From: a virus
Length of the DNA: 64,000 nt
Reading direction: 5' to 3' (one strand)
Virus record (IMG/VR): IMGVR_UViG_3300037882_003529
Span: 4,462 to 68,461 of that record
The notes below the pieces were generated by a model. That model was not told the origin of the DNA. It saw only the letters and a program-made list of their open reading frames with translations, and made no database searches. Made by a program: the position numbers and the translations under genes. Shown one piece after another: positions 6,029-63,442 of this stretch (position 1 is its first letter; every line of letters starts with the position of its first letter).

Positions 6029-6685
6029 TTAATTATGTTGAACTTTCTTCTTCATTTCAGCTAATCTTTTGTAAGCTTCGATGACACAATTGGACTGAAC
6101 AAAGCAGTCATAGAAAGCATCATGCTTTTCTCGGCCTTCAAGAATATCAGTCCAAATATGACGACCTTGTGGAGTCCCTCCAAAATTTCCGTCGATATCA
6201 AACATTCCACAGACTGTTCGAACATCCATTTCTTGCCAAAATTTCCAAGGCGCTTCTTTCTGGTAAAACATACCCCAAAGAGCAGAAATTTTAGAACAAT
6301 CGAAGCTTGGCGACCTTGCCCAAATTTTAGGATTATCACAGCTTCTGATGAAAGTTTCAAAGCATTCTTTAAATTCATTAAGCGGAATTTTTGTATTCTT
6401 CATCAATTGAAGAAACTTATCACTGTTTTTATTCATCCACCAATTTACGGTCTGTGAATTAATATCTGCTCCAGCCGATTCTTGTTCTTCCATCGAAGGA
6501 TAACAATCAAAAGTCGAAACAAGAGTAGCATTTCCAGTTTCTACATCAAGATGAAATGCTACCATTGAAACTTGAAGTAGCATTGGTGTTACTGAGACAC
6601 TTAATGTCTCAAGATCTAGCATGATATTGTTGGCTTTTATCGGCGATGATTGCATTGATGGGACTCCATTAAGAAGTCCCATCAT
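6029..6685 (-). CDS. dexA: DEDDh 3'-5' exonuclease (DexA/RNase AS-like)
   Basis: MLDLETL, TVNWW, SFD, PWKFWQEMDVRT, HDAFYDC. Confidence 0.8.
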   Translation of the reverse strand: MMGLLNGVPSMQSSPIKANNIMLDLETLSVSVTPMLLQVSMVAFHLDVETGNATLVSTFDCYPSMEEQESAGADINSQTVNWWMNKNSDKFLQLMKNTKIPLNEFKECFETFIRSCDNPKIWARSPSFDCSKISALWGMFYQKEAPWKFWQEMDVRTVCGMFDIDGNFGGTPQGRHIWTDILEGREKHDAFYDCFVQSNCVIEAYKRLAEMKKKVQHN

Positions 6686-7885: not shown

Positions 7886-9163
7886 TTACCGAGTTCGAGT
7901 TGAATCAAACACTAATACACATGAATTCGCAGGAATCTTTCGGTTCACTGAAGTGGACTGAATAAACACTTGCCATTGACCGTGTTCGCCTGGTTTCATT
8001 TTGATTCGACCAGAAGGAAGACCTAATCGTTGTCGAGCCGTTGAACCACCAAATACCTTACCAGTACGAGGATCACGAATTGCAATTTGCTTGGTTTCGT
8101 GAACTACTTGTTCGCTCTTCACTAATTCGTAGAAAGCATTGCCAACAATATAAGGCTTTTTAGTTTCTTGTTCGACCAATCTTCGAATTTCTTGTTCAGC
8201 ATTCGAATTCAAAATTCGATATTCGGTAATTTCGTGTAGATTTTCTTTTGCCTTTTCTACACTAACATCTTCAAGGTCGATTCCAAAATAGTTTGAACTT
8301 CTTGTGCCTCCAGCAGATAAAGTAGCAGTACGAGCATATTGACTTCTTACTGTTACTGCTGAAGCTGTTTGCAAACCTTCAACTGAAGTAGCATCCCAAA
8401 CTTTAACATTTCCAGGTTCAATTCCATATGCGCTTTGAATGCCTCTTTTAACTCGTTCATCAGGAACCAAAAAAGCAACCGTCAAATTATTTGGACAGTT
8501 TCTCATTAAAGTTCTAAATTGCTGAACGTGCGTAAGTCCTGAAGAGTTTTCTTCTCCGTCGGTCAACACCAAAATCATTTGAATATCATTATTCTTGATT
8601 TTCTCATATGCTTCTACAATTGCTCGAAGCATAGGCGTGCTTCCTGAAGGACTATAATCCTTCATAGCCTCTACAACACCATCAGCGTCTAATTGATCTC
8701 TAAAACACAAATCAGATTTATAAAGATCAGGAGTAACAACGTGAGCAAAAGACTTGTAGTAACCACCAAATCGCATGATTCCGTAAGTTTGATCAATATT
8801 TGCTGAAGCTAAGGAAACCGAAGCGTCTTTCATTTCAGCAATAGTTCTCTCAATAATTCTTGGAACATGTCGTCCTAAACCAGACATAGAGCCAGATTCA
8901 TCGATAGCCAAAATGACTGAGCTTGTTTTACGGACTGGCGGTGGAGATTTGGCTTTTTTCTTCGGAGTTGCTTGAACTTTGAACACTTTAGCCACTGGTT
9001 TTTTCGCAGCTAATTTTGGTTTGATAGTAACACTTGCTTTAGAAACTCGATATTTGTATGCAGTTGTTTCTGAGCAGTTATTTCGAGCTGCGATTTGGCG
9101 GGCACTGAATTTGCCTGAATTCCAGTCAGCTTGAATTTGTTGAATTGAGAATGCCATGTTCAT
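7886..9163 (-). CDS. vWA-domain protein with N-terminal HTH-like segment
   Basis: MIDAS DESGSM, TPMLRAI, VLTDGEENSS. Confidence 0.85.
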   Translation of the reverse strand: MNMAFSIQQIQADWNSGKFSARQIAARNNCSETTAYKYRVSKASVTIKPKLAAKKPVAKVFKVQATPKKKAKSPPPVRKTSSVILAIDESGSMSGLGRHVPRIIERTIAEMKDASVSLASANIDQTYGIMRFGGYYKSFAHVVTPDLYKSDLCFRDQLDADGVVEAMKDYSPSGSTPMLRAIVEAYEKIKNNDIQMILVLTDGEENSSGLTHVQQFRTLMRNCPNNLTVAFLVPDERVKRGIQSAYGIEPGNVKVWDATSVEGLQTASAVTVRSQYARTATLSAGGTRSSNYFGIDLEDVSVEKAKENLHEITEYRILNSNAEQEIRRLVEQETKKPYIVGNAFYELVKSEQVVHETKQIAIRDPRTGKVFGGSTARQRLGLPSGRIKMKPGEHGQWQVFIQSTSVNRKIPANSCVLVFDSTRTR

Positions 9164-10571: not shown

Positions 10572-11318
10572 TTAAAGATTCGACATCAGCATCATAAAAC
10601 CGCATGCATTAATCGTATTGATCTCGACGATTTTGATGCCGTCAGGAGTATCGCAAACATCAAGACAGTAGGCTTCATGAGGCGACCAATTAAAAGGTGC
10701 TATGACATAGTTAACGAAACTATCAAATCGTTTATCAATGAATTTTCTGCATGAAATTAATTTAGAACCACGACGATACATCGACTTGGCTGCAATTCTA
10801 TTTCTTACGATCCAATATCGATATTCAGAATAGATTGTTTTGGGATTAGACACTTGAATCATAGTGTCCATTAATCGATATCCGTAATCTTCTTTAAGAT
10901 CGACTACAGAATGTCGCCATTTCGCAAACTCTTCAGGTGTAATTAATTTGCCTCCAAACAGTTTAGAGTCTTCAATCGGCCTGATGAACTTAAGACTATC
11001 GACAACAGCATCTTGAAATTTGCAAACGACCGAATCAGAATTCAACAACAAATCTGACCAATGTTTCATTTGTTCAACAAAGGTGATTGGTCCTAAATCG
11101 TAGACACCAGGAGACCAATTCTTTTGTTTAGCTACATGTCTCATTGAGTATGAACCAAGACATATAACCGGACCTTCAGGGTTGATGTCTGGCAATATCT
11201 CGCCAACAAATGGAATAACTTTGTGGAGTGAATAAGGAATGTTATGCTTCTCAAACACTTTAATACAGTCATCAAATACTGGTTCTTTTGATATGTTATT
11301 TTGGACAACCCAATGCAT
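10572..11318 (-). CDS. ATP-grasp domain protein (R2K/DUF4343-like)
   Basis: FIRPIEDSKLFGG, SEYRYWIV, AYCLDV, KIVEINTINACGF. Confidence 0.8.
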   Translation of the reverse strand: MHWVVQNNISKEPVFDDCIKVFEKHNIPYSLHKVIPFVGEILPDINPEGPVICLGSYSMRHVAKQKNWSPGVYDLGPITFVEQMKHWSDLLLNSDSVVCKFQDAVVDSLKFIRPIEDSKLFGGKLITPEEFAKWRHSVVDLKEDYGYRLMDTMIQVSNPKTIYSEYRYWIVRNRIAAKSMYRRGSKLISCRKFIDKRFDSFVNYVIAPFNWSPHEAYCLDVCDTPDGIKIVEINTINACGFMMLMSNL

Positions 11319-11888: not shown

Positions 11889-11962
11889 TGGAAGCCTCTG
11901 AGAGAATCAAACTCCCTTATTTCGGGTCAGAGCCGAAGACATTATCAATATGTTAAGAGGCC
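11889..11962 (-). tRNA. tRNA-Gln(CUG)
   Basis: cloverleaf, TTCGG-CTCTGAC-CCGAA, encoded CCA. Confidence 0.85.
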
Positions 11963-11969
11963 AATCTTA

Positions 11970-12043
11970 TGGTACCCTCTGGCAGAATCGGACTGCCTTT
12001 ACCAACTTGTAAGGATGGAGTTTTACCATTAAACTAAGAGGGC
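11970..12043 (-). tRNA. tRNA-Val(UAC)
   Basis: loop CTTACAA, GCCCTCT/AGAGGGT acceptor, CCA. Confidence 0.85.
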
Positions 12044-12049
12044 ACAAGA

Positions 12050-12142
12050 TTGAAGAGGAAAAAACAAATTCAGCGTCCGCTATGAATGGTTTCCCATTCT
12101 TAGGAATTGAACCTAAGTAACTGAATTTTACGCCATCTTCAA
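12050..12142 (-). ncRNA. YrlA/Y-RNA-like element 1 (T-arm plus capped acceptor-like hairpin)
   Basis: scaffold GAAGATGGCGTAAAATTCAGTTACTT..CTGAATTT..TTCCTCTTC enclosing TTAGGTTCAATTCCTAA and GAATGG-GAAA-CCATTC. Confidence 0.65.
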
Positions 12143-12145
12143 AAG

Positions 12146-12222
12146 TGGTACCGATAGCGAGACTCGAACTCGCAAAATTTAGCGTCTAAAGCTAACACGT
12201 CTTCCAATTCCATCATACCGGC
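12146..12222 (-). tRNA. tRNA-Leu(UAG), short variable arm
   Basis: TTAGC-TTTAGAC-GCTAA, GTTCGAGTC T-loop, CCA. Confidence 0.9.
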
Positions 12223-12225
12223 ATA

Positions 12226-12639
12226 TTATAAAGAAAAATGAATTAAAAAATCACCATTTTCTAGTTCGTCAGCATAACCTCGTTTTACAAGCCCAATCAT
12301 TTGTTTTTTTCCTTCTTTAGAAAAAACTTTTGATGTTCTAATAGGACCCACGTCTAAAACCGCTCGACGCATTAATTCAAATGCTAATCCTCTTCCTCGA
12401 AAATTTTCATCGACATCAATTTGCATGCCGACCCAAATATCTGATATTTTTTTAAGAGATAATTTACCAACAGGAATTTCATAGTCTGTTTTGATTGAAT
12501 TTTTCTTATAGAAATCATAAGCAATATACTCTTTTCTATCATTTCTATCGACTTCTAATTCAATCTTAATTTTAGAAAATTTCGAAGTTACAATCTCTAC
12601 AAATAATTTAAAGAATTTAAAATTATTTACCTCTTTCAT
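12226..12639 (-). CDS. GNAT-fold acetyltransferase-like protein inserted in the tRNA cluster
   Basis: IDVDENFRGRGLAFELM acetyl-CoA-binding motif A, FSKEG. Confidence 0.7.
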   Translation of the reverse strand: MKEVNNFKFFKLFVEIVTSKFSKIKIELEVDRNDRKEYIAYDFYKKNSIKTDYEIPVGKLSLKKISDIWVGMQIDVDENFRGRGLAFELMRRAVLDVGPIRTSKVFSKEGKKQMIGLVKRGYADELENGDFLIHFSL

Positions 12640-12689
12640 ATTAAATTTTATATGGAAAAATTATTTATGAGAATCGAACTCGCAAAAAT

Positions 12690-12829
12690 TGGTTACAATA
12701 CTTCGTGTGTATTTGGTAGCAATTCAAATACATTTTTCACGTATTTCTCGTGACTTCGACCATACACGTACGCCGATTGATTATGCTAGCCTTAAAGAGG
12801 ATAAACAACACCAAAAGGAAGTATTGCAA
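12690..12829 (-). ncRNA. unassigned ~140-nt structured RNA ending in CCA
   Basis: terminal stem TTGCAATACTTC/GAAGTATTGTAA then CCA; internal hairpins TCACG/CGTGA and TGTATTTG/CAAATACA. Confidence 0.55.
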
Positions 12830-12831
12830 AA

Positions 12832-12902
12832 TGGCAGACTAGGTGAGAATCGAACTCACTCTCGGTGGGTCAAAGCCACGTCGGATCCCTGATCTCTAGC
12901 CA
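12832..12902 (-). tRNA. tRNA-Gln(UUG) with shrunken D-arm
   Basis: GTGG-CTTTGAC-CCAC, GTGAG-TTCGATT-CTCAC, GCCA end. Confidence 0.75.
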
Positions 12903-12912
12903 ATTGAAAAGG

Positions 12913-13048
12913 TTTCAACGGAAAATTGAATTCAGTATTTTTCGGGTTTTGCCATTAAACTACGATTCCATAGAATGCGGAATCGGGTGGAGTCGAACCA
13001 CCATCACGTCATTAACAGTGAAGGAACTGAAATCTGCACCAGTTGAAA
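12913..13048 (-). ncRNA. YrlA/Y-RNA-like element 2 with circularly permuted tRNA domain
   Basis: scaffold TTCAACTGGTGCAGATTTCAGTTCCTTC..CTGAATTCAATTTTCCGTTGAA; inside, T-arm GTGGTTCGACTCCAC, then CGATTCC/GGAATCG closed stem, then D-arm GTTTAATGGCAAAAC. Confidence 0.8.
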
Positions 13049-13051
13049 AAG

Positions 13052-13125
13052 TGGAGGGTCCAGAAGGAGTTGAACCTTCGTTCGCAGTTTAACAGACTGC
13101 CGTTCTTCCGTTGAACTATAGACCC
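13052..13125 (-). tRNA. tRNA-Asn(GUU)
   Basis: GCAGT-CTGTTAA-ACTGC, CCA. Confidence 0.9.
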
Positions 13126-13132
13126 TAAAATA

Positions 13133-13207
13133 TGGTAGCGGAGGAGGGAATCGAACCCACAACCTTGAGCTTATGAGACTCACAATCTTCCATTGATCTA
13201 CTCCGCT
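13133..13207 (-). tRNA. tRNA-Met(CAU)
   Basis: TGAGT-CTCATAA-GCTCA, AGCGGAG/CTCCGCT acceptor, ACCA. Confidence 0.85.
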
Positions 13208-13212
13208 GCTTT

Positions 13213-13246
13213 TGGACCGCTTAGCAATATCATTGCTTATAAGCGA
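13213..13246 (-). ncRNA. 34-nt minihelix-like RNA ending in CCA
   Basis: TCGCTTA-TAA-GCAAT-GAT-ATTGC-TAAGCGG-T-CCA. Confidence 0.4.
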
Positions 13247-13251
13247 TAATA

Positions 13252-13327
13252 TGGTACACTATGAGAGAATCGAACTCTCTTCTTCAGAGTGAAAATCTGA
13301 GATCCTTAACCATTAGACGAATAGTGC
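13252..13327 (-). tRNA. tRNA-Glu(UUC)
   Basis: TCAGA-TTTTCAC-TCTGA, GCACTAT/ATAGTGT, ACCA. Confidence 0.9.
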
Positions 13328-13328
13328 A

Positions 13329-13979
13329 TTAATTTCTACCTCTAGTGAAACCAATAGGAATCTCACTGTCGGCCTTTATTCTTGTATTCATAGAACCATT
13401 AGTTATCCAAATTTGCTTATATTTACGCTTATAAGGAATTACTGGTCTATTCATAAGAGATTTTGATATCTTTCGAGAATTTTCCACTCGGTTAAGAGTA
13501 GCAGTTCCTAAAAGGGAACATCTTTTACTACAATAAATTAATTTATTTTTTCTTTTGGAGTCAGAAGAAAATTCACTACTACAATTACAGCACACATAAT
13601 TATATTTTGGCTTATATCCATCATATAATTCATAAATGTTTTTGTATTGGTAGTTACTTTTGACCCAGTCAAATTCGACTTTTAAGTCTTGTTGATACAA
13701 TACTTTGGTTTTATATCCGGCTTGAAGAGCAGCATTAATTTTGATATCCACTAAAGGTGTGTAATACCCCTTTATTTCAATCAAACAACCAAATTCATCA
13801 ACAAAATCCGGAAAATACTTACTGTTTAGAGTTTTAATGAATCCTTCGAATCGTTTCACGAATAAATTATGATCTAATCTAAAAAGAACATAAACTAACT
13901 CATAAGTCGACGCACAATAAATTCCTCTAAAATATCCACTTTTGGATCTACCTGATCCTTTTCTGATTCCGCCTCTCAT
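13329..13979 (-). mobile_element. probable free-standing homing endonuclease (PD-(D/E)XK nuclease, Cys-rich and WITNG-type C-terminal motifs)
   Basis: YFPDF..IEIKG catalytic motif, CCNC..YCSKRC, WITNG..PIGFTRGR; sits inside tRNA cluster. Confidence 0.65.
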
Positions 13980-13984
13980 TAATT

Positions 13985-14014
13985 ATCACGTCCTAGCCAC
14001 TAGACTACAGGTGC
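13985..14014 (-). pseudogene. 5'-half remnant of a tRNA (Glu-like)
   Basis: GCACCTG-TA-GTCT-AGTGGCT-AGGAC-GTGA then breaks off into the endonuclease start. Confidence 0.7.
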
Positions 14015-14023
14015 AAAAATGAA

Positions 14024-14322
14024 TAAGTTGATATAGTGTGCTGTTACGCTTAAGTCTCTACGGATCTTGCATTGCATTAGCAGAACGGGTTTGTACACAC
14101 CCTATGGCCCTTCGTCTTTTACCACTGCTTTAAGTAACAGGCTTCGCCCAAATACGTTCAACCTCAAGTTTTGAATTCTGAAACCCGAATAGTCGATAAC
14201 AATGCAAACTGTACTTGTCCTTCTCCGTCGAACACCTTCCGAAAGGTTGACTAATCTCTCGGTTCGTCGATTTGACACTCATTAAAGATGGCTGCTTCTA
14301 AGCCTACTTCTACATCAACTTA
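14024..14322 (-). ncRNA. ~300-nt structured RNA containing a split 23S rRNA H43-H44 (L11-binding/GTPase-associated centre) mimic
   Basis: 13-bp terminal stem TAAGTTGATGTAG/CTATATCAACTTA; 5' AAGTAGGCTTAGAAGCAGCCATCTTTAATGA and 3' AAGCGTAACAGCACA match 23S nt ~1057-1103. Confidence 0.8.
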
Positions 14323-14325
14323 AAT

Positions 14326-14401
14326 TGGGGTAACTAGAGAGAATCGAACTCTCGACAATGCATTCACAGTGCATTCATTTACCATTAATTGTATAGCTAC
14401 C
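14326..14401 (-). tRNA. tRNA-His(GUG)
   Basis: ATGCA-CTGTGAA-TGCAT, G-1:C73, CCA. Confidence 0.9.
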
Positions 14402-14409
14402 ATTGAATT

Positions 14410-14496
14410 TGGCGGCGACTTGAGTATTCGAAACCCTGGCCTTGCGACCCGAATCGCTTTCCAAGCGATCTCAGTACCCTGACTGATTAAGACGCC
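14410..14496 (-). tRNA. tRNA-Ser(GGA), 8/4 cloverleaf
   Basis: acceptor GGCGTCTT/AAGTCGCC, 4-bp T-stem GGGT/ACTC, long variable arm, G73, CCA. Confidence 0.8.
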
Positions 14497-14502
14497 GATA
14501 AT

Positions 14503-14578
14503 TGGTATAGAGTATCAGAATCGAACTGATTTCCATGGCTCTTCAGGCCAGTGCAATAACCATACTTGCTCACTCTAT
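14503..14578 (-). tRNA. tRNA-Phe(GAA)
   Basis: TGGC-CTGAAGA-GCCA, ATAGAGT/ACTCTAT, ACCA. Confidence 0.85.
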
Positions 14579-14584
14579 ATTATT

Positions 14585-14675
14585 TGGCGGGTGATTAAAT
14601 AGTCGAAATCCAACCGCTTTCACGATCAATCTGCTTTCAAGGCAGTTCCGGCATCGCCTGTCCGGTTAATCACCC
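14585..14675 (-). tRNA. tRNA-Ser(UGA), 8/4 cloverleaf
   Basis: acceptor GGGTGATT/AATCACCC, 4-bp T-stem GGAT/ATTT, loop CTTGAAA, long variable arm, GCCA. Confidence 0.8.
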
Positions 14676-14684
14676 ATTTAAAAC

Positions 14685-14759
14685 TGGAGCTCCGACAAGG
14701 ACTCGAACCCTGCTCGATGGAGTACAAAACCATTGCCTCGCCATCTAGGCTTCCGGAGC
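14685..14759 (-). tRNA. tRNA-Thr(UGU)
   Basis: loop TTTGTAC, CAGGGTTCGAGTCCTTG, CCA. Confidence 0.85.
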
Positions 14760-14766
14760 AAAAAAG

Positions 14767-14823
14767 AACTTTGAAATCTACTAGCAGAGGCATTGTAATT
14801 TCTTCATAGATGATTTCAAAGTT
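14767..14823 (-). ncRNA. unassigned hairpin RNA
   Basis: 12-bp inverted repeat AACTTTGAAATC/GATTTCAAAGTT fills the spacer between RNA genes. Confidence 0.4.
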
Positions 14824-14826
14824 TAA

Positions 14827-15002
14827 AGGAGAACCATGCAGTTTCGACCTGCAACATCCAATTAAGGAGAGCGGAATCTAAGGCAAATAGCGCCAACTCC
14901 GGGTACACTTAATTGGTCGGGTAGTCAAAGCAACTACTAATAGGGTGCGAATAAAAACTTACCCGAGAAACATCCGCTTGCTATTTTCGTTCTTTATGGT
15001 TC
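14827..15002 (-). ncRNA. ~175-nt RNA with tRNA-like acceptor and T-arm and a possible pseudoknot
   Basis: GAACCAT/ATGGTTC acceptor, GCAG-GTCGAAA-CTGC, helices TCGGGTA/TACCCGA and CCAATTAAG/CTTAATTGG, loop GCTATTT complementary to upstream AAATAGC. Confidence 0.65.
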
Positions 15003-15010
15003 ATTGAAAC

Positions 15011-15086
15011 TGGAGCCCTATAGAGGAATTGAACCCCTGACCTGTTGGTTCGAAGCCAACTGCTCTATCCACTGAGCTAATAAGGC
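15011..15086 (-). tRNA. tRNA-Arg(UCG)
   Basis: GTTGG-CTTCGAA-CCAAC, A20, CCA. Confidence 0.9.
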
Positions 15087-15092
15087 AATATT

Positions 15093-15241
15093 AGGTTTCC
15101 ATCCGCAGAGGCGATAGATTTCTAATCTACCGGAACCTTCACTTTTCTACAATAATTAAATCCTACGTAATTAATGTAAAACGCAAATAAACTGTCCAAA
15201 ATTGCTATCCATTGGATTCAATAAATCTGACGGCATGGAAA
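15093..15241 (-). ncRNA. unassigned ~150-nt multi-hairpin RNA
   Basis: terminal pairing TTTCCATGCCGTCAGA/TCTGCGGATGGAAA plus three internal hairpins. Confidence 0.5.
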
Positions 15242-15243
15242 TA

Positions 15244-15317
15244 TGGTCCTCAGAGAAAGAATCGAACTTTCGTCAATGGATTATCGGTCCATCGTTTTAC
15301 CATTAAACTATCCGAGG
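15244..15317 (-). tRNA. tRNA-Ile(GAU)
   Basis: ATGGA-CCGATAA-TCCAT (C33), ACCA. Confidence 0.85.
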
Positions 15318-15321
15318 AAAC

Positions 15322-15397
15322 TGGAGTCTTCGCTTAGGGACCCTAATCCCTGATTCTGATATCAAGAATCTGCTCTTTCCTGGGGAGCTACGAAGAC
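15322..15397 (-). ncRNA. non-canonical tRNA-like RNA (aberrant anticodon and T arms)
   Basis: GTCTTCG/CGAAGAC-T-CCA, D-arm GCTC/GAGC, GATTCT/AGAATC arm, no TTC T-loop. Confidence 0.6.
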
Positions 15398-15402
15398 ATA
15401 AT

Positions 15403-15477
15403 TGGCAGGTCATAGAGGATTCGAACCTCTGCCGCAAGGTTTTGGAGACCTGCATGCTGCCGTTACACTAACGACCT
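15403..15477 (-). tRNA. tRNA-Trp(CCA)
   Basis: AGGT-CTCCAAA-ACCT, GCCA. Confidence 0.9.
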
Positions 15478-15483
15478 ATTAAT

Positions 15484-15557
15484 TGGAGCAGATAATCGGA
15501 ATCAAACCGATTTCGCCTGGTTGGAAGCCAGGGGCACAATCAATATACCATACCTGC
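15484..15557 (-). tRNA. tRNA-Gly(UCC)
   Basis: CCTGG-CTTCCAA-CCAGG, TCCA. Confidence 0.9.
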
Positions 15558-15564
15558 ATAAAAT

Positions 15565-15639
15565 TGGCGTTCTCTGATGGAATCTAACCACCGACCTCGC
15601 AACCGCAGTTACGTGCTCTATCCACTGAGCTAAGAGAAC
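15565..15639 (-). tRNA. tRNA-Arg(GCG)-like with 6-nt anticodon loop
   Basis: CGTAA-CTGCGG-TTGCG, A20 D-loop, GCCA. Confidence 0.65.
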
Positions 15640-15643
15640 AAAA

Positions 15644-15718
15644 TGGTGGGACCGCAGAGAATCGAACTCTGATCGACCGGTTAAAAGCCGGCTGCTCTAG
15701 CCGTTGAGCTACGATCCC
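15644..15718 (-). tRNA. tRNA-Lys(UUU)
   Basis: GCCGG-CTTTTAA-CCGGT, ACCA. Confidence 0.95.
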
Positions 15719-15723
15719 GAAAT

Positions 15724-15799
15724 TGGTACCGATACCGGGACTCGAACCCGGAAAATTCAGATTTTAAGTCTGACACGTATACCTTTCCATCATACCGGC
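15724..15799 (-). tRNA. tRNA-Leu(UAA), short variable arm
   Basis: TCAGA-CTTAAAA-TCTGA, ACCA. Confidence 0.9.
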
Positions 15800-15895
15800 A
15801 TAAAAGGGCTGGGGAGCTCGTGATTTACCACTTTCTTCTAGATTGATCATTTCTAGGAGCCTTTTAATAAGGCGCAACCCATTGAGATCATTAAT

Positions 15896-15979
15896 TGGTG
15901 GGTACCCAGAGAATCGAACTCTGTCGGCCGAAGCATCGCATTTACAGTGCGACCCATGTCCATAATGGTCTATGTACCC
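15896..15979 (-). tRNA. tRNA-Tyr(GUA)
   Basis: TCGCA-CTGTAAA-TGCGA, long variable arm, ACCA. Confidence 0.85.
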
Positions 15980-15985
15980 CCAAAT

Positions 15986-16102
15986 TGGCGCTTCTCGATG
16001 GATTCTAACCACCGTTCTCCTATTCAGAGTTTAAGCTCTACAAGGCGCATTTGCTGACACTAATAAGGCGACCGCCAGTCAGACTACAAAATGCTAAGAA
16101 GC
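15986..16102 (-). ncRNA. 117-nt tRNA-like RNA with greatly extended D-arm
   Basis: GCTTCTT/GAGAAGC-G-CCA, GGTGG-TTAGAAT-CCATC, D-arm GCATTT..CTGAC..GTCAG..AAATGC. Confidence 0.65.
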
Positions 16103-16107
16103 AAAAA

Positions 16108-16244
16108 TGGTGTCTCTCTAAGGATTTAAACCTTAGATTTCTTCCTTTCGGGGAAGCGTCGTTAATCAAACACTGCGGCTAGCACCGCTGCTTGAGAACT
16201 TGCTAGAATTCTCATATTTGATTTTAATCATTGGACCAAGAGAC
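16108..16244 (-). ncRNA. 137-nt tRNA-like RNA with a kissing-loop domain inserted in the D-loop
   Basis: GTCTCTT/GAGAGAC-A-CCA, TAAGG-TTTAAAT-CCTTA, inserted hairpin loops CTAGCA and TGCTAG are complementary. Confidence 0.75.
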
Positions 16245-16248
16245 AAAT

Positions 16249-16338
16249 TGGCGGAATCTAAGAGATTCGAACTCTTACTCCCTTTCGAGAGGCTGGTTTA
16301 GCAAACCAGTGCGACTGCACCGTCTTCGCGGAGATTCC
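16249..16338 (-). tRNA. tRNA-Ser(GCU)
   Basis: CTGGT-TTGCTAA-ACCAG, long variable arm, GCCA. Confidence 0.9.
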
Positions 16339-16344
16339 ATAAAT

Positions 16345-16419
16345 TGGAGGCTAGGGTCGGAATCAAACCGACTTGAAATGGATTTGCAATCCACTGCATA
16401 ATCATTCTGCCACCTAGCC
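16345..16419 (-). tRNA. tRNA-Cys(GCA)
   Basis: GTGGA-TTGCAAA-TCCAT, U73, CCA. Confidence 0.9.
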
Positions 16420-16428
16420 AAAAGAAAA

Positions 16429-16517
16429 TCTCGAAAGAATAAATGAATTCAAAGGACAGTCCAATAGGCGGACCGTATCAGTCTCAATGAAGTATTTGAA
16501 CTCTACACTATTCGAGA
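16429..16517 (-). ncRNA. YrlA/Y-RNA-like element 3 (no tRNA domain)
   Basis: TCTCGAATAGTGTAGAGTTCAAATACTTC..TTTGAATTCATTTATTCTTTCGAGA. Confidence 0.6.
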
Positions 16518-16521
16518 AAAC

Positions 16522-16608
16522 TGGCGCTCTTTTGAGGACTCGAACCTCAATTGTGATTATTTTTAACCTGCGCATCAGAATAATCATGCTTGCCGTAAGC
16601 TAAAGAGC
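16522..16608 (-). ncRNA. tRNA-like RNA with 8-bp anticodon stem and 17-nt loop
   Basis: GCTCTTT/AAAGAGC-G-CCA, D-arm GCTT/AAGC, TGATTATT-N17-AATAATCA, TGAGGTTCGAGTCCTCA. Confidence 0.7.
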
Positions 16609-16618
16609 AATAAAAATG

Positions 16619-16686
16619 TAAGGAAGGAAAAAATGAACTCAGAGTTTTTCTCACATTGAAGTATCTGAATTCTACGCCATTCCTTA
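16619..16686 (-). ncRNA. YrlA/Y-RNA-like element 4 (minimal)
   Basis: TAAGGAATGGCGTAGAATTCAGATACTTC..TCTGAGTTCATTTTTTCCTTCCTTA. Confidence 0.6.
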
Positions 16687-16690
16687 AAAC

Positions 16691-16765
16691 TGGTGGACCA
16701 GAGGGGAATCGAACCCCTAACATCAACTTGCAAGGCTGACATTTTCCCAATTAAACTACAGGCCC
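16691..16765 (-). tRNA. tRNA-Ala(UGC)
   Basis: TCAGC-CTTGCAA-GTTGA, G3:U70, ACCA. Confidence 0.9.
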
Positions 16766-16772
16766 ATTAAAA

Positions 16773-16849
16773 TGGTCGACTAGATGAGATTTGAACTCAT
16801 AACCCCTCGGTCCCAAACCGAGTGCTCTACCAAGTTGAGCTTCTAATCG
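16773..16849 (-). tRNA. tRNA-Pro(UGG)
   Basis: CTCGG-TTTGGGA-CCGAG, ACCA. Confidence 0.9.
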
Positions 16850-16869
16850 TTAATTTCTTCTATCAAATA

Positions 16870-16944
16870 TGGCGACTCGTACGAGATTCGAACTCGTGTA
16901 TCCTAATAGACAGTCAGGAATCGTTACCACTAGATCAACGAGCC
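16870..16944 (-). tRNA. tRNA-Asp(GUC)
   Basis: CCTGA-CTGTCTA-TTAGG, GCCA. Confidence 0.9.
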
Positions 16945-16952
16945 AAGTAAGG

Positions 16953-17022
16953 TCTTAGAGGAAAAATTGATTTCGGATTGGCACTTTTCAAAAGAAGTAA
17001 CCGAAATCTTCACCATCTAAGA
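16953..17022 (-). ncRNA. YrlA/Y-RNA-like element 5 (minimal)
   Basis: TCTTAGATGGTGAAGATTTCGGTTACTTC..CCGAAATCAATTTTTCCTCTAAGA. Confidence 0.6.
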
Positions 17023-17028
17023 AAAAGG

Positions 17029-17162
17029 TTTCAGCAGAAAAACGAACTCAGAGTTTGGCGACGGACTCGAACCTTTAATCTCCTAGTTTCCTAGGTGTTT
17101 TAACCAGTTAAACTACGCTTCCGAATGGTGGAAGAAGTATCTGAACTCTGCACTAGCTGAAA
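17029..17162 (-). ncRNA. YrlA/Y-RNA-like element 6 with non-permuted tRNA domain
   Basis: scaffold TTTCAGCTAGTGCAGAGTTCAGATACTTC..TCTGAGTTCGTTTTTCTGCTGAAA; inside, D-arm, CCTAG-GAAA-CTAGG, then GGTTCGAGTCC. Confidence 0.7.
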
Positions 17163-17170
17163 TAAAAAGT

Positions 17171-17306
17171 TGAAGAGGAATTATGCGAATCCAAAATCTT
17201 GGAGCCCTGGTTCTACCGTTAAACTACAAGTCTATTCAGACTCGGAGGGATTCGAACCACTCATTGAGGGCTTGGAATGAAGTATTTGAATTCTACGCCA
17301 TCTTCA
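17171..17306 (-). ncRNA. YrlA/Y-RNA-like element 7 with circularly permuted tRNA domain
   Basis: GCCCT..T-arm GGTTCGAATCC, CGAGTCT-GAAT-AGACTTG closed acceptor, D-arm GTTTAACGGTAGAAC..AGGGC inside the conserved scaffold. Confidence 0.8.
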
Positions 17307-17492
17307 CCCAAATACACTCGAAAATTTATTTGGGTGAAGATTCCCTAAAGGGAATCTTCAAATGACTTTTTACAAATTGTGAAGGAACTTTGCAACTCCA
17401 CTGATTCTATCGAATCTAAGGAGAGTGCATTTCGCTTCTCTCCGTGGTCTTATGTACTCATCTGCTTATGTTTTAGCAGATTTGATGGAGTG

Positions 17493-17523
17493 ATTCTATA
17501 CTGACTCCATGAGTTTGTAAACA
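17493..17523 (-). promoter_or_regulatory. early-type promoter heading the RNA island
   Basis: minus strand GTTTACA..TATAGAAT. Confidence 0.65.
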
Positions 17524-21142: not shown

Positions 21143-21171
21143 ATTATAACACGATTCTACCGAAAGTAAAC
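21143..21171 (-). promoter_or_regulatory. T4-type early promoter
   Basis: minus strand GTTTAC-N17-TATAAT with TG extension. Confidence 0.8.
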
Positions 21172-21813
21172 AATTTCTTTCCATCGAGTTTCGAGCATTT
21201 GGGCATATAGTTTTGAGTCCATTCCTTTATAGAATCCTAAAGCCCAAGCATCAGTAAGCTCTACAATCGCTAAACCAACTCCCTCGATCCAACCTACGTC
21301 AATTGCATAAGCCGAAGGTTTATTTTTCCAAGCTTCGATGACTTGTTGACAGAAGGATTCTATTTCATTTTTAGAAATATCTTCTTCGTCTAAATCATCA
21401 TATCGACCCATGCCAAGAATGCTATTGCCTTGACAATAAACTCGCCATTCTTGAGAAAAGTTAACTACGTCAGAATAGATGTACTTCTGGTCGTAGAATT
21501 TGCATCGTTTTGCTATGTGTGTATCGAATGCCTTATAAACCCATGGCTTAAAGAAATACTTTTTAGGCGACCATGGATCAAAACCAGCAGGTAAACCCCA
21601 ATGAACCACTCCGACATTTCTTTTGTAAAATGTCGAATGATCTAAACCGACACCTAAACCTAAAGGCTCTGGAATTTGAATTTGATTCTTATCCCAAATT
21701 CCTTTAATCCATTTGATAGAACCTACATGAAGCGGAAGAGTTTCTTGTCGAATAGGCTCAAATGCAAAAGTTTCAATTGTGCCATAACCAGGTTCAATTA
21801 CAGCTTTAATCAT
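21157..21813 (-). CDS. ATP-grasp domain protein (R2K/DUF4343-like)
   Basis: FFKP..KAF, SQEWRVY, AYAIDVG, IVELTDAWALGFY. Confidence 0.8.
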   Translation of the reverse strand: MIKAVIEPGYGTIETFAFEPIRQETLPLHVGSIKWIKGIWDKNQIQIPEPLGLGVGLDHSTFYKRNVGVVHWGLPAGFDPWSPKKYFFKPWVYKAFDTHIAKRCKFYDQKYIYSDVVNFSQEWRVYCQGNSILGMGRYDDLDEEDISKNEIESFCQQVIEAWKNKPSAYAIDVGWIEGVGLAIVELTDAWALGFYKGMDSKLYAQMLETRWKEIVYFR

Positions 21814-29084: not shown

Positions 29085-30317
29085 TTATATTGATGAAACT
29101 GTTGATCGTCTTTCGGCTACCGATTGACGAGTTTTTCCAGTCGAAATATATCGAATAGGAATTGATATTTTATCTCCTGGAAAGTTAAAATCTTGGGAAT
29201 CAGCCCATGTTACTGCTAAAACAGGATCCCAATATGTTTGTTTTTGGGACATGGTCGTAAAAAGGTCACTGCAAATTCGAATTCGCATATCACCTAGATC
29301 AAGTTTGCCTCGCCTTTGATCTCCTTGCCATTGATTTGGTTTATTTGTGTCATCATCGAACTTAACCCAATCTTGGCTCTGGCTTGAATACATTTGACCT
29401 GTTCCGTGACGAGTCAAATAAGTTCTAGTCACATAGATCGGCTGAATTTCGACCGATTTAGTAAGATTTCCTTTAAAAATCTCACCAGAAAGATCATTAA
29501 TTGCTTCGGAAGCTGACTCTATTCCAGGATCAGAAGGAGTTAAATGCGGACTCCAAGTGGGCTGACCGATTAATTTTTCAGAAAGGCCAAGTCCTTGTGC
29601 ACCTTCAACGATGATTTGAAAATGTTCGCCTAATAATACCTTTTGATGCTCAGAAATTGAATTGTCGTTAAATTCTTTTACTTTGTATAGTGATTCAGTA
29701 AAAAGTGACAATAATTCAGATGAACAATATAAAGAAACATCAAATAATCCTTTTGACTTCTCGTTTAGATTTTCTAAACCATAGTTTCGATGTTTAGCTA
29801 TACGAGTAGGATTAATGTATTTTAATCGAAGTGCTTCTTCTTTGAATGATTTAGATCTTTTGAAACATTCAAAAATTCCGTGGCCACAAGATCCATGCCG
29901 GCCACTACCTCGATTTGTTTCATGGATTTGATTTGTTGCCATATCCCAAGGCGTAACAATTCGACAAGATGGTGATATCATAATAATTGGAGTCCATCCA
30001 AAAAAATCCTTGAACTTTTCCAATTCTTTGAGAAGAGCTAAAGGATTTAGATAGAAGTTAGAACCCAAATATCCAATTACATTACGGCCAACACCACATC
30101 CAGAAGGAATTGAATTAAAGACGAAAGATCTACCATCTGGATAATTCACTGTATGTCCAGCTTGAGCGCCTCCATTATGACGAATACATATCACATAATG
30201 GAGATTTCTGTTCGTTTCGACATCATATTGAAGCGCTTTGTTAGTAAGATAATCGGTCATTAAACCTTTACCTTCGTCGCCGAAATTTGCTCCAATCACA
30301 ACTGGAATGGTTATCAT
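29085..30317 (-). CDS. adenylosuccinate synthetase-like protein (divergent PurA clade)
   Basis: GANFGDEGKG, RHNGGAQAGHT, HGSCGHGI, EGAQGLGL, VTRTYLTRHG. Confidence 0.85.
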   Translation of the reverse strand: MITIPVVIGANFGDEGKGLMTDYLTNKALQYDVETNRNLHYVICIRHNGGAQAGHTVNYPDGRSFVFNSIPSGCGVGRNVIGYLGSNFYLNPLALLKELEKFKDFFGWTPIIMISPSCRIVTPWDMATNQIHETNRGSGRHGSCGHGIFECFKRSKSFKEEALRLKYINPTRIAKHRNYGLENLNEKSKGLFDVSLYCSSELLSLFTESLYKVKEFNDNSISEHQKVLLGEHFQIIVEGAQGLGLSEKLIGQPTWSPHLTPSDPGIESASEAINDLSGEIFKGNLTKSVEIQPIYVTRTYLTRHGTGQMYSSQSQDWVKFDDDTNKPNQWQGDQRRGKLDLGDMRIRICSDLFTTMSQKQTYWDPVLAVTWADSQDFNFPGDKISIPIRYISTGKTRQSVAERRSTVSSI

Positions 30318-38676: not shown

Positions 38677-38751
38677 TGGTAGGCCTGCTAGGAATCGAAC
38701 CTAGACCGATGGATTATGAGTCCACTGCTCTTACCAATGAGCTACAGGCCC
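38677..38751 (-). tRNA. tRNA-Ile2(CAU) (lysidine type) or Met
   Basis: GTGGA-CTCATAA-TCCAT, C4/C5 acceptor pairs, ACCA. Confidence 0.85.
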
Positions 38752-39144: not shown

Positions 39145-40101
39145 TTAACCTTTGAAATTTAGAGAAATGACTTTGAATGACCAACTTTGATCTTTAGCCC
39201 TAAACACAACACCTTCAGCTTGTTTTCCATTTTTATATCTTACATTGTCTGCGATATCTCTCAAATCATCAACAGATTCTGGTTTTGGAACATAAACAAA
39301 ATCAACAAGCGGAAGAGAAGTTTCTTCAGAGAAACGAAGCAATTCACTCAAAGGTTGTTTTTCCCAAACATTTCTGCGACCTTCAGCTTTCTTTAGAAGA
39401 GTAAAAATTTTGATCGATTTTTCACGTAATCCAGATTGATTATCATGGATTCCAGGACCAATGATTTCATATTGAATACCAAATCCATCAGGAATCAACT
39501 TCTCTAAATTAAACTTTTTAGCCAATTGAGTATAAAAATTATCAGCATCTGGCTTTACGGTTAATGTTCGAGAACAAATAGTCAGCTTTCCGTCTTCTTT
39601 GAACGCAGTAGAAGAAGTTCCATCTTCTTTCACTGTGACATAATATGGTTCTTCTAATTTCTCGACCCATCTTGGAAACATTTGATAGTTGAGTTCAGAA
39701 GTTTTCGAAATGAAATGAGGAAATCCTGCGATGAAATCATCGGTATTTTCGATCGATTTCTCGTATTTTGCTACTCGATAAAATCCAGTAAGATCTTCAC
39801 CGATAAACTTTAATGACTCCTCAATAGATTCCAAAGGAATAATCAAGCATTCAGAAGGAGACCCTTTAAATCGACAGAGTTTAATCCGATAAGAGTGCTT
39901 TTCCATGAAAGCAAAACGCTGAATTGCAGGCAAAATCGCATCTGGAAGAAAAACGGCAACATCATCAAGAAGATTAATCGTTTTTTGAATAACTCCGGTC
40001 CAAATTCCTGCTTCGCCACAATCAACTGTCGCTTCTTGAATAAAATCAGCGCCTATGATCGATCTAATCGAAACAACCTTTCCTTTTGTAGCTAAAATCA
40101 T
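39145..40101 (-). CDS. RNA ligase (DRB0094/Rnl2-like)
   Basis: N-terminal OB-like domain, motif I KEDGTS, QYEIIGPGI, EGVVF, SFKVIS. Confidence 0.85.
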   Translation of the reverse strand: MILATKGKVVSIRSIIGADFIQEATVDCGEAGIWTGVIQKTINLLDDVAVFLPDAILPAIQRFAFMEKHSYRIKLCRFKGSPSECLIIPLESIEESLKFIGEDLTGFYRVAKYEKSIENTDDFIAGFPHFISKTSELNYQMFPRWVEKLEEPYYVTVKEDGTSSTAFKEDGKLTICSRTLTVKPDADNFYTQLAKKFNLEKLIPDGFGIQYEIIGPGIHDNQSGLREKSIKIFTLLKKAEGRRNVWEKQPLSELLRFSEETSLPLVDFVYVPKPESVDDLRDIADNVRYKNGKQAEGVVFRAKDQSWSFKVISLNFKG

Positions 40102-40316: not shown

Positions 40317-40399
40317 GGTCGTCGTTTAGGAATCGAACCTAATCTTTAAGAGAAAAATTACCCAACCCATTCTCAAATATGCCCATACATCAAACGACG
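40316..40399 (-). ncRNA. non-canonical tRNA-like element
   Basis: CGTCGTT/AACGACG-A-CCA, TAGG-TTCGATT-CCTA, tiny D-arm ATG/CAT, extended GAGAA/TTCTC arm. Confidence 0.55.
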
Positions 40400-40483
40400 A
40401 ATACAAGAAACAACCAAATTATTAGGAGAAATATGCCAATCAAAATTGCTGGCATAAAAACCCTAATCAAAGCGTAAAATAAA

Positions 40484-57347: not shown

Positions 57348-58625
57348 TTAATTTTTAATTCCGTCGTTTAATTCATGAACATCGAAAGCGTAGTATCTGG
57401 ATACTTCACCATCAGTATGATCTATATCAAGAACTTCACGATAATATCCTGGTATTCCTCTTTTAGCTAAAACCAAGCATTCTTTTCGAGCTGTATCGGT
57501 TGGAAGATCATATGGTGGAGTTTTCTGAGTCCAAGCTGATGGTCCAATTAGTGGTCCAATCAATTTAAGCTCACGAGCAACCTTAAGAAGTCTAATTGCA
57601 TCGCATACTACGCCAGCAGAATTTGGCGAATCTTCTACAGACAGATCAGCAGTAAATTCGATAGGTGCTCCTCCCCAAGCTTTTGCTTTGATTAACCAGT
57701 GAGCTCGTTTATTATCTTTAAGAGCAGGAAAATAAGCAGCTGGTCCAGCTTTCACGGAGTTTGGTTTGACTTCATTGCCAGCAAGTAAAATCTGATTTTT
57801 GATCACATTTTCTTTAGACTGTTTCTTAGATTTCAGTCTATCTGGATTTTGCATATTAGAAAAGTCTGTATTTCCTCCAATATTGTCCTGATAATGCATG
57901 AGAACATCACATCCTCGAGCTTGAAAAAGCTCTTGAAGAACTGCCGACACGATGCTTGCACCAAGTGCTGATCGCATATCATCTCCGATCATCGCAATTC
58001 GCTTATCTACGAATTTTTGGGCCCATTCTGGATCAGATCCAATGAACACAGGAATACAATTAAGAAAACTAATTCCAGTTTGAAGACAAATATCTGCCCA
58101 AAATTCAGTAGCAATTTGAGAACCTACTGGCAAATAGTTGATAATGATGTCAACCTTTTTTTCCTTTAGGTATTTGATGATTTCAGTCTTTGAAATGCTT
58201 CTTTCGATATGTGCAAGCTGATCACTATCGATTAATCCTCGTTCATATGCCCAACGATAATCTCTAAATGATTCATCATGCGGATAATCATACATGTGCT
58301 TAGAAACTCCGTCCATAATAGGAGCGGGCTGAACTATTGGGTTGTTCAAAAGTTCTTCTTTCAGTGTATCTTGATCGATAAATTGAAGAGTGCAGTTTGG
58401 GTTTTCGAAAATTGCTTCAGATAATGGCTTAAAGATTTTTCGATAATCGATGTCATATGCAGCAACAACTTCAATGTCTGTAGCATAATATCCACCGATA
58501 TTCTTTTCCATAATTCCTGGAATACCAGAATCAGAATTACTTTCTTGTTTGTAATAACCAAATCCTTGAACTAGCGACGAAGCGCAGTTTCCAATTCCAA
58601 CGATTGCGACTTTAATAAGTTCCAT
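57348..58625 (-). CDS. ino1: myo-inositol-1-phosphate synthase
   Basis: VGIGNCASSLVQG, NYLPVGS, NCIPVFI, GDDMRS, NIGGNTDF, SKKQSK, DNK, VEDSPNSAG. Confidence 0.95.
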   Translation of the reverse strand: MELIKVAIVGIGNCASSLVQGFGYYKQESNSDSGIPGIMEKNIGGYYATDIEVVAAYDIDYRKIFKPLSEAIFENPNCTLQFIDQDTLKEELLNNPIVQPAPIMDGVSKHMYDYPHDESFRDYRWAYERGLIDSDQLAHIERSISKTEIIKYLKEKKVDIIINYLPVGSQIATEFWADICLQTGISFLNCIPVFIGSDPEWAQKFVDKRIAMIGDDMRSALGASIVSAVLQELFQARGCDVLMHYQDNIGGNTDFSNMQNPDRLKSKKQSKENVIKNQILLAGNEVKPNSVKAGPAAYFPALKDNKRAHWLIKAKAWGGAPIEFTADLSVEDSPNSAGVVCDAIRLLKVARELKLIGPLIGPSAWTQKTPPYDLPTDTARKECLVLAKRGIPGYYREVLDIDHTDGEVSRYYAFDVHELNDGIKN

Positions 58626-63402: not shown

Positions 63403-63442
63403 GAGATCTCCTGACAATAATGCTTTATTGTATCACTGAAAA

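Follow-up and report, generated by a model that had tools for sequence, protein, structure and literature searches.

What lies between the tRNA genes of a phage tRNA array, and how much of it is gene rather than spacer? The question is raised by a 64,000-nucleotide (nt) stretch of viral DNA (positions 4,462 to 68,461 of IMG/VR record IMGVR_UViG_3300037882_003529), referred to below as the window, in which tRNA genes and foldable spacers alternate on the minus strand between positions 11889 and 17500 (the island). The record itself, 68,461 bases long, is listed as linear, with an estimated completeness of 38%. An earlier note on this DNA had described the island as 25 tRNAs interleaved with roughly 17 structured elements behind one early-type promoter and had proposed that they form a battery of translation-apparatus mimics. 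The answer that we consider probable is that the locus is the tRNA array of a distant T4-like phage into which at least three other kinds of small RNA have been inserted on the same strand: seven paralogous Y RNAs, a 299-nt RNA that copies helices 43 and 44 of 23S rRNA, and CCA-ended tRNA shapes with aberrant D or anticodon regions. That estimate also takes in the processing, Ro60-binding, and ligand roles set out further on. The gene identities, family memberships, and conserved structures are observations and are given first.

Seven of the spacers begin with a recurring 5' arm. A fuzzy search for this arm returned seven minus-strand copies, all inside the island, and otherwise one chance match with 6 mismatches in a coding region. 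The seven elements (Y1 to Y7; Table 1) have a handle in common. At its base is a helix of 7 base pairs (bp), separated by a bulged U from 2 further bp; next comes an asymmetric internal loop with 4 nt on one side and 6 to 8 nt on the other, in which the conserved unpaired motifs are located, and then a helix of 9 bp and the sequence UACUUC. The apical parts that the handle carries range from 11 to 82 nt: three are simple hairpins, two are tRNA elbows of the YrlA type, one is a pseudo-tRNA, and one combines a T arm with a hairpin. A covariance model (R1) trained on six of the window copies recovered Y3, which had been left out, with an E value of 8e-13; when R1 was run against the 64-kb window with the filters off, it gave exactly seven matches, at 60 to 90 bits, the next best scoring 13.7 bits. 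Y1 could be aligned with the Rfam YrlA model over the T arm, the closed acceptor hairpin, and the D arm (19.7 bits), and the fold of Y6 presents the T arm, closed acceptor stem, and D arm in the same order as YrlA. The part of Y2 between 17056 and 17122 scored 23.8 bits with the Rfam tRNA model, for which the cut-off is 29.

The 5' strand of the handle carries a further resemblance. According to Chen et al. (2014; PMC4201824), Y RNAs carry a 5' motif, GNCGAAN0-1G, thought to contact Ro60, and in an alignment of 54 copies the corresponding positions of our elements read R-G-Y-G-N-A-G. Y3 has GAA at positions 4 to 6 and a U in place of the motif C, while the other six window copies have U or C at position 5. 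We take this strand to be a variant of the published Ro60-recognition motif, and, as judged from sequence and predicted fold, Y1 to Y7 are Y RNAs: Y1 and Y6 appear YrlA-like, Y3 and Y4 appear YrlB-like, and Y2, Y5, and Y7 appear to carry other modules. The closed acceptor stem of Y6 is 7 bp long, a feature that, as Chen et al. describe, allows RNase P to cleave the YrlA of M. smegmatis.

Relatives of the Y elements were sought with a degenerate 22-nt pattern for the 5' arm, which matched 40 viral contigs, 27 of them confirmed by R1 at an E value of ≤0.001. The contigs with the confirmed family span 35 to 66% G+C, and the R1 matches at an E value of ≤1 number 64 in all, often as tandem arrays of two to five. 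Covariation was assessed with the 54 copies that matched at an E value of ≤1e-4. Each of the 18 stem pairs had changed on both sides, and 94.2% of the cells were paired, compared with 63.6% in shuffled controls and at most 57.4% when partners were slid; the alignment had been fitted to R1 and favours structure, which counts against this figure, though the margin is large. The long forms of other phages gave eight matches to Rfam YrlA at R1 sites (27.6 to 54.7 bits; E values of 1e-9 to 0.1). R1 found nothing in 550 kb of unrelated metagenome loci or in any of five other viral records, and a single match in a further 100 viral loci (909 kb in total), of which many lie in tRNA arrays. Loci anchored on SPFH genes (6 viral and 47 metagenomic) contained no Y element; the neighbouring SPFH protein is mostly bacterial, and these loci serve only as negative controls.

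The family keeps close company with Ro60. The TROVE/Ro60 domain (PF05731) scored above its Pfam cut-off in 26 of the 27 other viral records that hold the Y family, including all nine that are at least 90% complete, and the only miss was a 4.4-kb fragment. Among 40 viral records picked via an unrelated RNA, TROVE was found in two at an E value of ≤0.001 and above the cut-off in one. In many of the Y-family records the Ro60 gene lies directly beside the RNA array on the same strand; in one of them (G009), it abuts four Y RNAs, which in turn run into a tRNA array. The earlier note had listed Y RNAs among the mimics. For seven elements this identification is supported by an R1 model that finds its omitted copy and relatives in viral contigs, stem pairs that covary throughout, the association of the family with Ro60, and a transitive link to Rfam YrlA.

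A second kind of RNA occupies the spacer at 14322–14024. Its parts are a 13-bp closing helix, a copy of 23S helix 43 (14304–14287), an insert of ~237 nt, and a copy of helix 44 (14049–14040). When this spacer was compared with E. coli genomes by blastn, only 23S rRNA genes were matched, at 23S positions 1056–1089; pairwise alignment placed the match at 1055–1089, with 18 identical bases over helix 43 and its loop. Collinear with it is another match, to 23S positions ~1085–1107 (22 of 26 columns, with a 3-nt gap), whose core takes in helix 44. The Rfam bacterial large-subunit rRNA (LSU) model gave a local match on helix 43 (E value of 0.045 in a 381-nt search). These helices belong to the GTPase-associated centre of the ribosome.

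At least 117 viral contigs contain the exact 18-mer of the helix-43 copy. Among the matches listed, 80 loci were examined; none aligned to 23S over more than 300 nt, and these loci are therefore not rRNA genes. The helix-44 10-mer was searched for, with up to 1 mismatch, within 500 nt downstream of the 18-mer, and it was found 11 to 349 nt downstream in 71 of the 96 other distinct copies among the matches listed. In 19 loci scanned with Rfam, the 23S-like elements stand among tRNA genes and are covered by no Rfam family; the copies are mostly located in tRNA arrays. Forty-seven members were aligned by MAFFT, with no fitting to structure. Changes on both sides were seen in 11 of 11 pairs of the closing helix, 3 pairs of the lower helix-43 stem, and 4 of 4 pairs of the helix at the base of the insert, and the covariation score was 0.54, compared with 0.15 for shuffled and at most 0.21 for slid alignments. 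A covariance model built from nine short members, with the window copy excluded (R2), matched the window copy at 43.9 bits (E value of 2e-11) in its 5' part and 13.4 bits in its 3' part, the long insert splitting the match. The order of parts in the window copy is that of the family (closing helix, helix-43 copy, junction, insert, helix-44 copy, ACAC, and the 3' strand of the closing helix), and the basal helix of its insert comprises merely ~3 bp.

Copies also occur in cultured phages. In Pseudomonas phage pf16, an unannotated copy fills the gap between tRNA-Asn and tRNA-Pro (positions 2485–2685 of locus L224; R2 score of 78 bits), and Cronobacter phage GAP32 has an unannotated intergenic copy (2488–2743 of locus L225; 75 bits). 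Further blastn matches fall in unannotated stretches of phages CBB and XacN1, Aeromonas phage 4_4572, Astolliot, and others. A phage RNA family that copies the GTPase-associated centre was not found in Rfam 15 or in our literature searches, and the RNA at 14322–14024 appears from its sequence to be a member of a covarying phage RNA family for which we found no published description. The "rRNA-domain mimic" of the earlier note is thus well founded, both in the collinear matches to E. coli 23S and in a covarying family whose model, built without the window copy, recognizes that copy as well as those of pf16 and GAP32.

The insert of the window copy has one weak similarity, at two loci (E value of 0.009 by nhmmer in 2.08 Mb of fetched loci). 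Since it lies in an rRNA-like context beside an endonuclease open reading frame (ORF), a group I intron at 14278–14057 was considered; RF00028 gave no match at an E value of ≤10 in the 381-nt search or ≤5 in a 6.4-kb search. A copy of the sarcin-ricin loop was likewise looked for in the insert: it had no match in the island and three matches at chance level elsewhere in the window. In another phage, a tRNA array that contains a 23S-like RNA also carries a GOLLD RNA (positions 685–1176 of locus L127; Rfam score of 164.8 bits), so that one array can house more than one large or mimic RNA.

The array into which these RNAs are set was reproduced much as first described. ARAGORN called 23 tRNA genes at its default threshold and 26 at a relaxed one, which added Ser-GGA (14410–14496), Ser-UGA (14585–14675), and a weak Gln-UUG (12832–12902); 20 of the 26 reached the Rfam gathering score. 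All 26 encode the CCA end, and together they represent all 20 amino acids, so that the claim of 25 tRNAs with encoded CCA stands at 25 good genes and one weak candidate. Two of the 26 (15565–15639 and 16522–16608) lack a 7-nt anticodon loop. No family other than tRNA reached its Rfam gathering score in the window, and a permissive search added only matches below threshold. GOLLD, ROOL, and tmRNA were among the families with no match at the gathering score in the window; GOLLD and ROOL were absent from the permissive search as well.

The remaining elements are a mixed group. The ~17 non-tRNA elements comprise the seven Y RNAs, the 23S-like RNA, eight further spacers designated B1, B2, C, D, E, F, H, and I, and a leader of five hairpins; strong comparative support, in the form of covariation together with relatives elsewhere, is confined to the first eight. 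Folding energy was clearly below that of shuffled sequences only for the leader (z score of −5.7) and B1 (z score of −4.9). The scores of D, E, F, H, and I (−2.1 to −2.8, the latter for the whole F spacer) fall inside the range of coding controls (+1.5 to −2.8), and those of B2 (−0.2), C, and the 346-nt stretch 13980–14325 are near 0. A scan for tRNA top halves found all 7 acceptor pairs and all 5 T-stem pairs formed in B1, which also has a long variable arm and an ACCA end; B2 had a 7-bp acceptor stem, a T arm, and a GCCA end, and was called a tRNA by ARAGORN only with a 34-nt "intron." In both, the 7-bp acceptor stem is perfect, the T stem has 5 bp, the T loop is near canonical, and the end is NCCA, but the interior is aberrant. 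D ends in TCCA and has a noncanonical 6-nt T loop and a 6-bp anticodon stem. The two long spacers, 12226–12639 and 13329–13979, are mostly protein coding. The 216-aa ORF in the second matched PHROGs families labelled HNH endonuclease (E values of 4e-4 and 9e-4, both weak) and had no Pfam match.

Table 1. Features of the tRNA array region and the evidence for each (positions are those of the window)
Feature	Positions	Strand	Evidence
Candidate sigma-70-like promoter, 10/12	17493..17521	−	Consensus match only
Leader, five hairpins, between promoter-like site and Y1	17310..17500	−	z score of −5.7
Y1, long form, YrlA-type tRNA-like domain	17169..17309	−	R1, 74.5 bits
Y2, apical degenerate tRNA in normal order, GAAA-capped anticodon arm	17028..17164	−	R1, 75.3 bits
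Y3, short form, small apical hairpin	16952..17024	−	R1, 60.4 bits
tRNA gene array	11889..16944	−	25 tRNAs and one weak candidate, 20 amino acids
Y4, short form	16618..16688	−	R1, 73.8 bits; fold
tRNA-like RNA, 8-bp anticodon stem, ~17-nt loop	16522..16608	−	ARAGORN; below Rfam gathering score
Y5, intermediate form, 7-bp apical hairpin	16428..16519	−	R1, 81.3 bits; fold
B1, 137-nt tRNA-shaped RNA	16108..16244	−	Top-half scan; z score of −4.9
B2, 117-nt tRNA-shaped RNA	15986..16102	−	Top-half scan; z score of −0.2
tRNA with 6-nt anticodon loop	15565..15639	−	ARAGORN, 2-nt "anticodon"; Rfam tRNA, 50.2 bits
D, 76-nt cloverleaf	15322..15397	−	Fold; z score of −2.6; no ARAGORN or Rfam call
F, 176-nt RNA, tRNA-like acceptor and T-arm top half, no CCA	14827..15002	−	Fold
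RNA copying 23S GTPase-associated centre, 299 nt	14024..14322	−	blastn, alignments, Rfam LSU, R2
216-aa ORF, probably a free-standing homing endonuclease	13329..13979	−	Weak PHROGs matches
Y6, long form, YrlA-type domain, 7-bp closed acceptor hairpin	12912..13050	−	R1, 82.4 bits; fold
137-aa ORF	12226..12639	−	GNAT acetyltransferase PF00583, 19.5 bits (cut-off 20.7); no PHROG
Y7, intermediate form, T-arm-like hairpin and GAAA-capped hairpin	12049..12144	−	R1, 89.9 bits; fold

The inventory therefore bears out part of what the earlier note had said of the spacers. Its count of ~17 elements can be reproduced, and at least eight of them are conserved RNA genes with covarying helices; support for the others is uneven, with z scores outside the controls only for the leader and B1 and no homologues found in 2.08 Mb of fetched loci. 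The phrase "almost every spacer" being a structured RNA overstates the case, since two spacers are ORFs and about seven elements are known by predicted fold only. As for "tRNA decoys," the tRNA shape is fairly described for B1, B2, D, F, and the two tRNAs with odd loops, and a decoy action would be one conceivable use of it. Two further observations concern these elements. In the branched extra domain of B1, two neighbouring hairpins have 6-nt loops that are exactly complementary to each other, and kissing within or between molecules is possible. The 35 nt at 13980–14014 (minus strand) read as a tRNA 5' half (acceptor strand, D arm, and the start of an anticodon stem) that resembles the intact tRNA-Glu at 13252–13327 and ends just ahead of the endonuclease-like ORF; it may be the scar of a homing event.

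The co-transcription, processing, Ro60 binding, and downstream functions that we infer for these RNAs would run as follows. Transcription would start at the promoter-like site at 17521–17493, and perhaps at another at 14819–14792, and yield a single precursor or a small number of them. RNase P and the 3'-end tRNA-processing enzymes of the host would cut at the 26 tRNAs, and the RNAs in between would thereby be set free as separate, stable molecules. By way of their common handle, the Y RNAs would load onto a Ro60 ring, whose gene would be found either in the host or in the 62% of the phage genome that is missing, and their differing apical modules could tether the ring to partners, for example PNPase, or gate it. 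Tethering or gating by Y RNA has been described for the bacterial complex of Rsr, Y RNA, and PNPase (PMC4201824; PMC12135203). The 23S-like RNA would bind a ligand of the GTPase-associated centre, such as uL11, off the ribosome.

Several observations weigh against this model. The Y1 score with YrlA lies far under the gathering score of 69 (RF02553), only one of the seven handles escapes a change to U or C at the first A of the published motif, and the search pattern for relatives itself specified part of the 5' arm. No Ro60 was detected in the 68-kb record with Pfam TROVE, with one phage Ro60 protein, or with a profile of 12 phage Ro60 sequences that scored its positive control at an E value of 2e-149, and no Ro60/TROVE gene lies within ~4 kb of Y1 to Y7 on the same strand; this does not amount to absence from the phage, because 62% of its genome is missing. 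The best sigma-70-like site on the minus strand lies upstream of the island at 17521–17493, but the site inside the array at 14819–14792 is equally good, and promoter-like sites show no excess over shuffled sequence (16 observed versus 14.8; standard deviation, 4.4). The "one early-type promoter" of the earlier note is unsupported for these two reasons. Finally, nhmmer found no homologue of B1, B2, C, D, E, F, H, I, or the leader in the 2.08 Mb of fetched loci, so that their reality as RNA genes rests on predicted folds.

A 425-aa vWA-domain protein at 7886–9163 was considered as a Ro60 candidate and rejected: it is not Ro60-like by BLASTP, and the metal-site motif alone agrees. A separate observation comes from a 178-kb viral record (G072; 91% complete), in which a clear YrlA-type RNA (positions 6225–6354 of locus L175) directly follows tRNA-Met. 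It is the one Y RNA of that tRNA array, which also contains a 23S-like RNA, and neither Pfam TROVE nor the phage Ro60 profile detected Ro60 in the record, which may offer a second example of a phage whose Y RNA has no phage Ro60.

Phage tRNA arrays turn over, and the elements that lack homologues could be the debris of such turnover. On this account B2, C, D, E, F, H, and I would be decaying tRNA genes, homing scars, and processing spacers rather than functional RNAs, and so, perhaps, would B1 and the two odd tRNAs. We regard this explanation as a serious contender, if a little short of an even chance. It sits well with folding z scores between 0 and −2.8, inside the coding-control range, with the failure to find homologues of these spacers in fetched loci many of which are phage tRNA arrays, and with an endonuclease-like ORF that adjoins the truncated tRNA at 14014–13980. 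The missing homologues are nonetheless weak evidence for decay, because no close relative of the phage was found for comparison. B1 fits the account poorly, having a z score of −4.9, an intact 7-bp acceptor, a T arm, and CCA, and B2 and D keep a perfect acceptor stem and CCA, both of which random decay would erode.

The array might instead serve counter-defence, as the earlier note suggested. The tRNA-like and odd-loop RNAs would then act as decoys or as resistant stand-ins against anticodon nucleases, the 23S-like RNA would act as a decoy for ribosome toxins or for RelA/uL11, and the Y RNAs, together with Ro60, RNA ligase, and HAD phosphatase, would repair or clear RNA. Precedents come from two sources. 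According to a preprint on phage Bas63 (10.1101/2024.10.10.617714), its Ro60-like gp130, encoded directly upstream of a tRNA stretch, counters the ppl defence, and its authors suggest that some of the "tRNAs" are Y RNAs. In a Thermus phage, Ro60 and two Y-like RNAs are described as forming a complex with host PNPase, for which a role in defence evasion is proposed (PMC12135203). Within the window, an RNA ligase is encoded and the anticodon loops of two array tRNAs are abnormal; the ligase gene, however, is 22 kb from the array and hence not co-located, and the same RNAs could equally serve a plain take-over of host RNA turnover and translation. Counter-defence is plausible, but as the explanation of this array we hold it to be rather unlikely.

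Less likely still is a purely RNA-based strategy in which a phage without Ro60 floods its host with seven Y RNAs, alike in their Ro60 handle and unlike in their "cargo" modules, that capture or neutralise the host Ro60/Rsr ring and, via it, PNPase or tRNA-handling enzymes, the array forming an organ of "mimic RNA." Were this improbable proposal true, the copy of the 23S centre and the CCA-ended tRNA shells, made on the same transcript, would rewire or shield host translation and RNA surveillance by RNA alone. That the seven repeats are a mobile or regulatory repeat (miniature inverted repeats, terminator or processing cassettes, or RNase III sites) instead of Y RNAs, as their crowding into 5 kb and their long inverted-repeat arms might suggest, is very improbable and largely refuted: the arms diverge yet stay paired through compensatory changes, which points to selection on RNA, the unpaired motifs of the internal loop are conserved, the family accompanies Ro60 genes in 26 of 27 records, and the long forms match Rfam YrlA.

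The proteins encoded in the window include gp32, both topoisomerase II subunits, T4-type RNase H, a DnaB-like helicase, a RecA/UvsX-like protein, DNA ligase, RNA ligase, and family B polymerase, and the best cultured relatives of its topoisomerase II are T4-like phages, at ~35% identity. The source is therefore an uncultured T4-type phage, and a distant one. No close relatives were found when viral contigs were scanned with single proteins, namely those of the two flanking ORFs and topoisomerase II.

Other genes of the window are recorded here as side observations (all on the minus strand). The RNA ligase gene (39145–40101) is flanked by a second tRNA-Met (38677–38751; Rfam score of 73 bits) and by a "tRNA-His (ATG)" (40317–40400) called by ARAGORN and not by Rfam. 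An adenylosuccinate synthetase homologue (29085–30317; PF00709, E value of 2e-32), for which a PurZ-type role in 2-aminoadenine DNA is one conceivable function, was the only purine gene seen in the phage, and a homologue of myo-inositol-1-phosphate synthase (57348–58625; PF01658, E value of 4e-25), unusual in a phage, lies amid the replication genes. The 515-aa ORF at 61870–63417 has the exonuclease domain of a family B DNA polymerase and only the beginning of the polymerase domain; the adjoining ORF (60765–61877) may carry the remainder, which would make this a split polymerase gene. Two R2K-clade ATP-grasp paralogues (10572–11318 and 21157–21813) stand on either side of the RNA island region.

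Phage tRNA arrays are usually annotated as tRNAs with junk or small ORFs between them; in this one, eight "spacers" or more are conserved RNA genes. Y1 to Y7 are new members of a known RNA type in an unusual arrangement: Y RNAs can evidently be dispersed in a tRNA array, away from any visible Ro60 gene, which raises the question of whether phages use the Ro60 of their host. The survey of Chen et al. (PMC4201824) reported Y RNA candidates in 254 bacteria and 22 phages, each species having two or more Y RNAs, of which one resembles tRNA and another is a simple hairpin. As its filters are described, matches overlapping tandem tRNA genes were dropped and only those within 4 kb of Ro60 were kept, which puts arrays such as that of the window outside its net; the 22 phages may include some of this kind. 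Phage Y RNAs have probably been undercounted, since this classic survey excluded the tRNA-array arrangement by design. Also in the window array is an RNA whose family is widespread in phages and copies the site on 23S rRNA that uL11 and translation factors bind. Since unannotated copies are present in the cultured phages pf16 and GAP32, the function of this RNA is open to ordinary genetics. Together, the Y RNAs and the 23S-like family make the role of the extra stable RNAs in T4-type tRNA clusters experimentally approachable.

How do these RNAs compare with known systems? With GOLLD and ROOL, as described in PMC12286853, they share a location in or beside phage tRNA arrays; the window RNAs are smaller and imitate known cellular RNAs, and neither GOLLD nor ROOL is matched in the window. 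In Bas63 (10.1101/2024.10.10.617714), "tRNA" genes beside the Ro60-like gp130 are likewise proposed to be Y RNAs, but there the Y RNAs are the proposal, whereas in the window the RNAs are defined and the Ro60 protein is missing. The likeness to the YrlA and YrlB Y RNAs (PMC4201824 and RF02553; Yrl1 and Yrl2 of phiLo, PMC12135203) extends, as far as these sources describe them, to 5' and 3' ends that pair as a stem, a GNCGAA-type 5' motif, several paralogues per genome, and the coexistence of a form with T arm, closed acceptor, and D arm and a simple hairpin form; the wider family identified here also stands beside Ro60 genes on the same strand. Unlike those Y RNAs, the seven window copies are interleaved with tRNA genes and none is beside Ro60 in the 68 kb, their scores lie well under the Rfam gathering score, the first A of the motif is replaced by U or C in six of seven, and the tRNA-like domain of Y2 is in normal rather than permuted order. 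The 23S GTPase-associated centre (helices 42 to 44; E. coli positions ~1051–1108) shares an identical 18 nt of helix 43 and its loop with the 23S-like RNA, in which the junction and the helix-44 hairpin are recognizable and collinear and the closing helix replaces helix 42; the window RNA differs in having a free-standing gene of 299 nt with ~237 nt inserted between its helix-43 and helix-44 parts. The tRNA cluster of T4 includes two extra stable RNAs and homing endonuclease genes. The window array resembles it in coming from a T4-type phage and in having predicted small RNAs and a probable homing endonuclease gene beside its tRNA genes, but it is far larger, with 25 or 26 tRNAs and ~17 extra elements.

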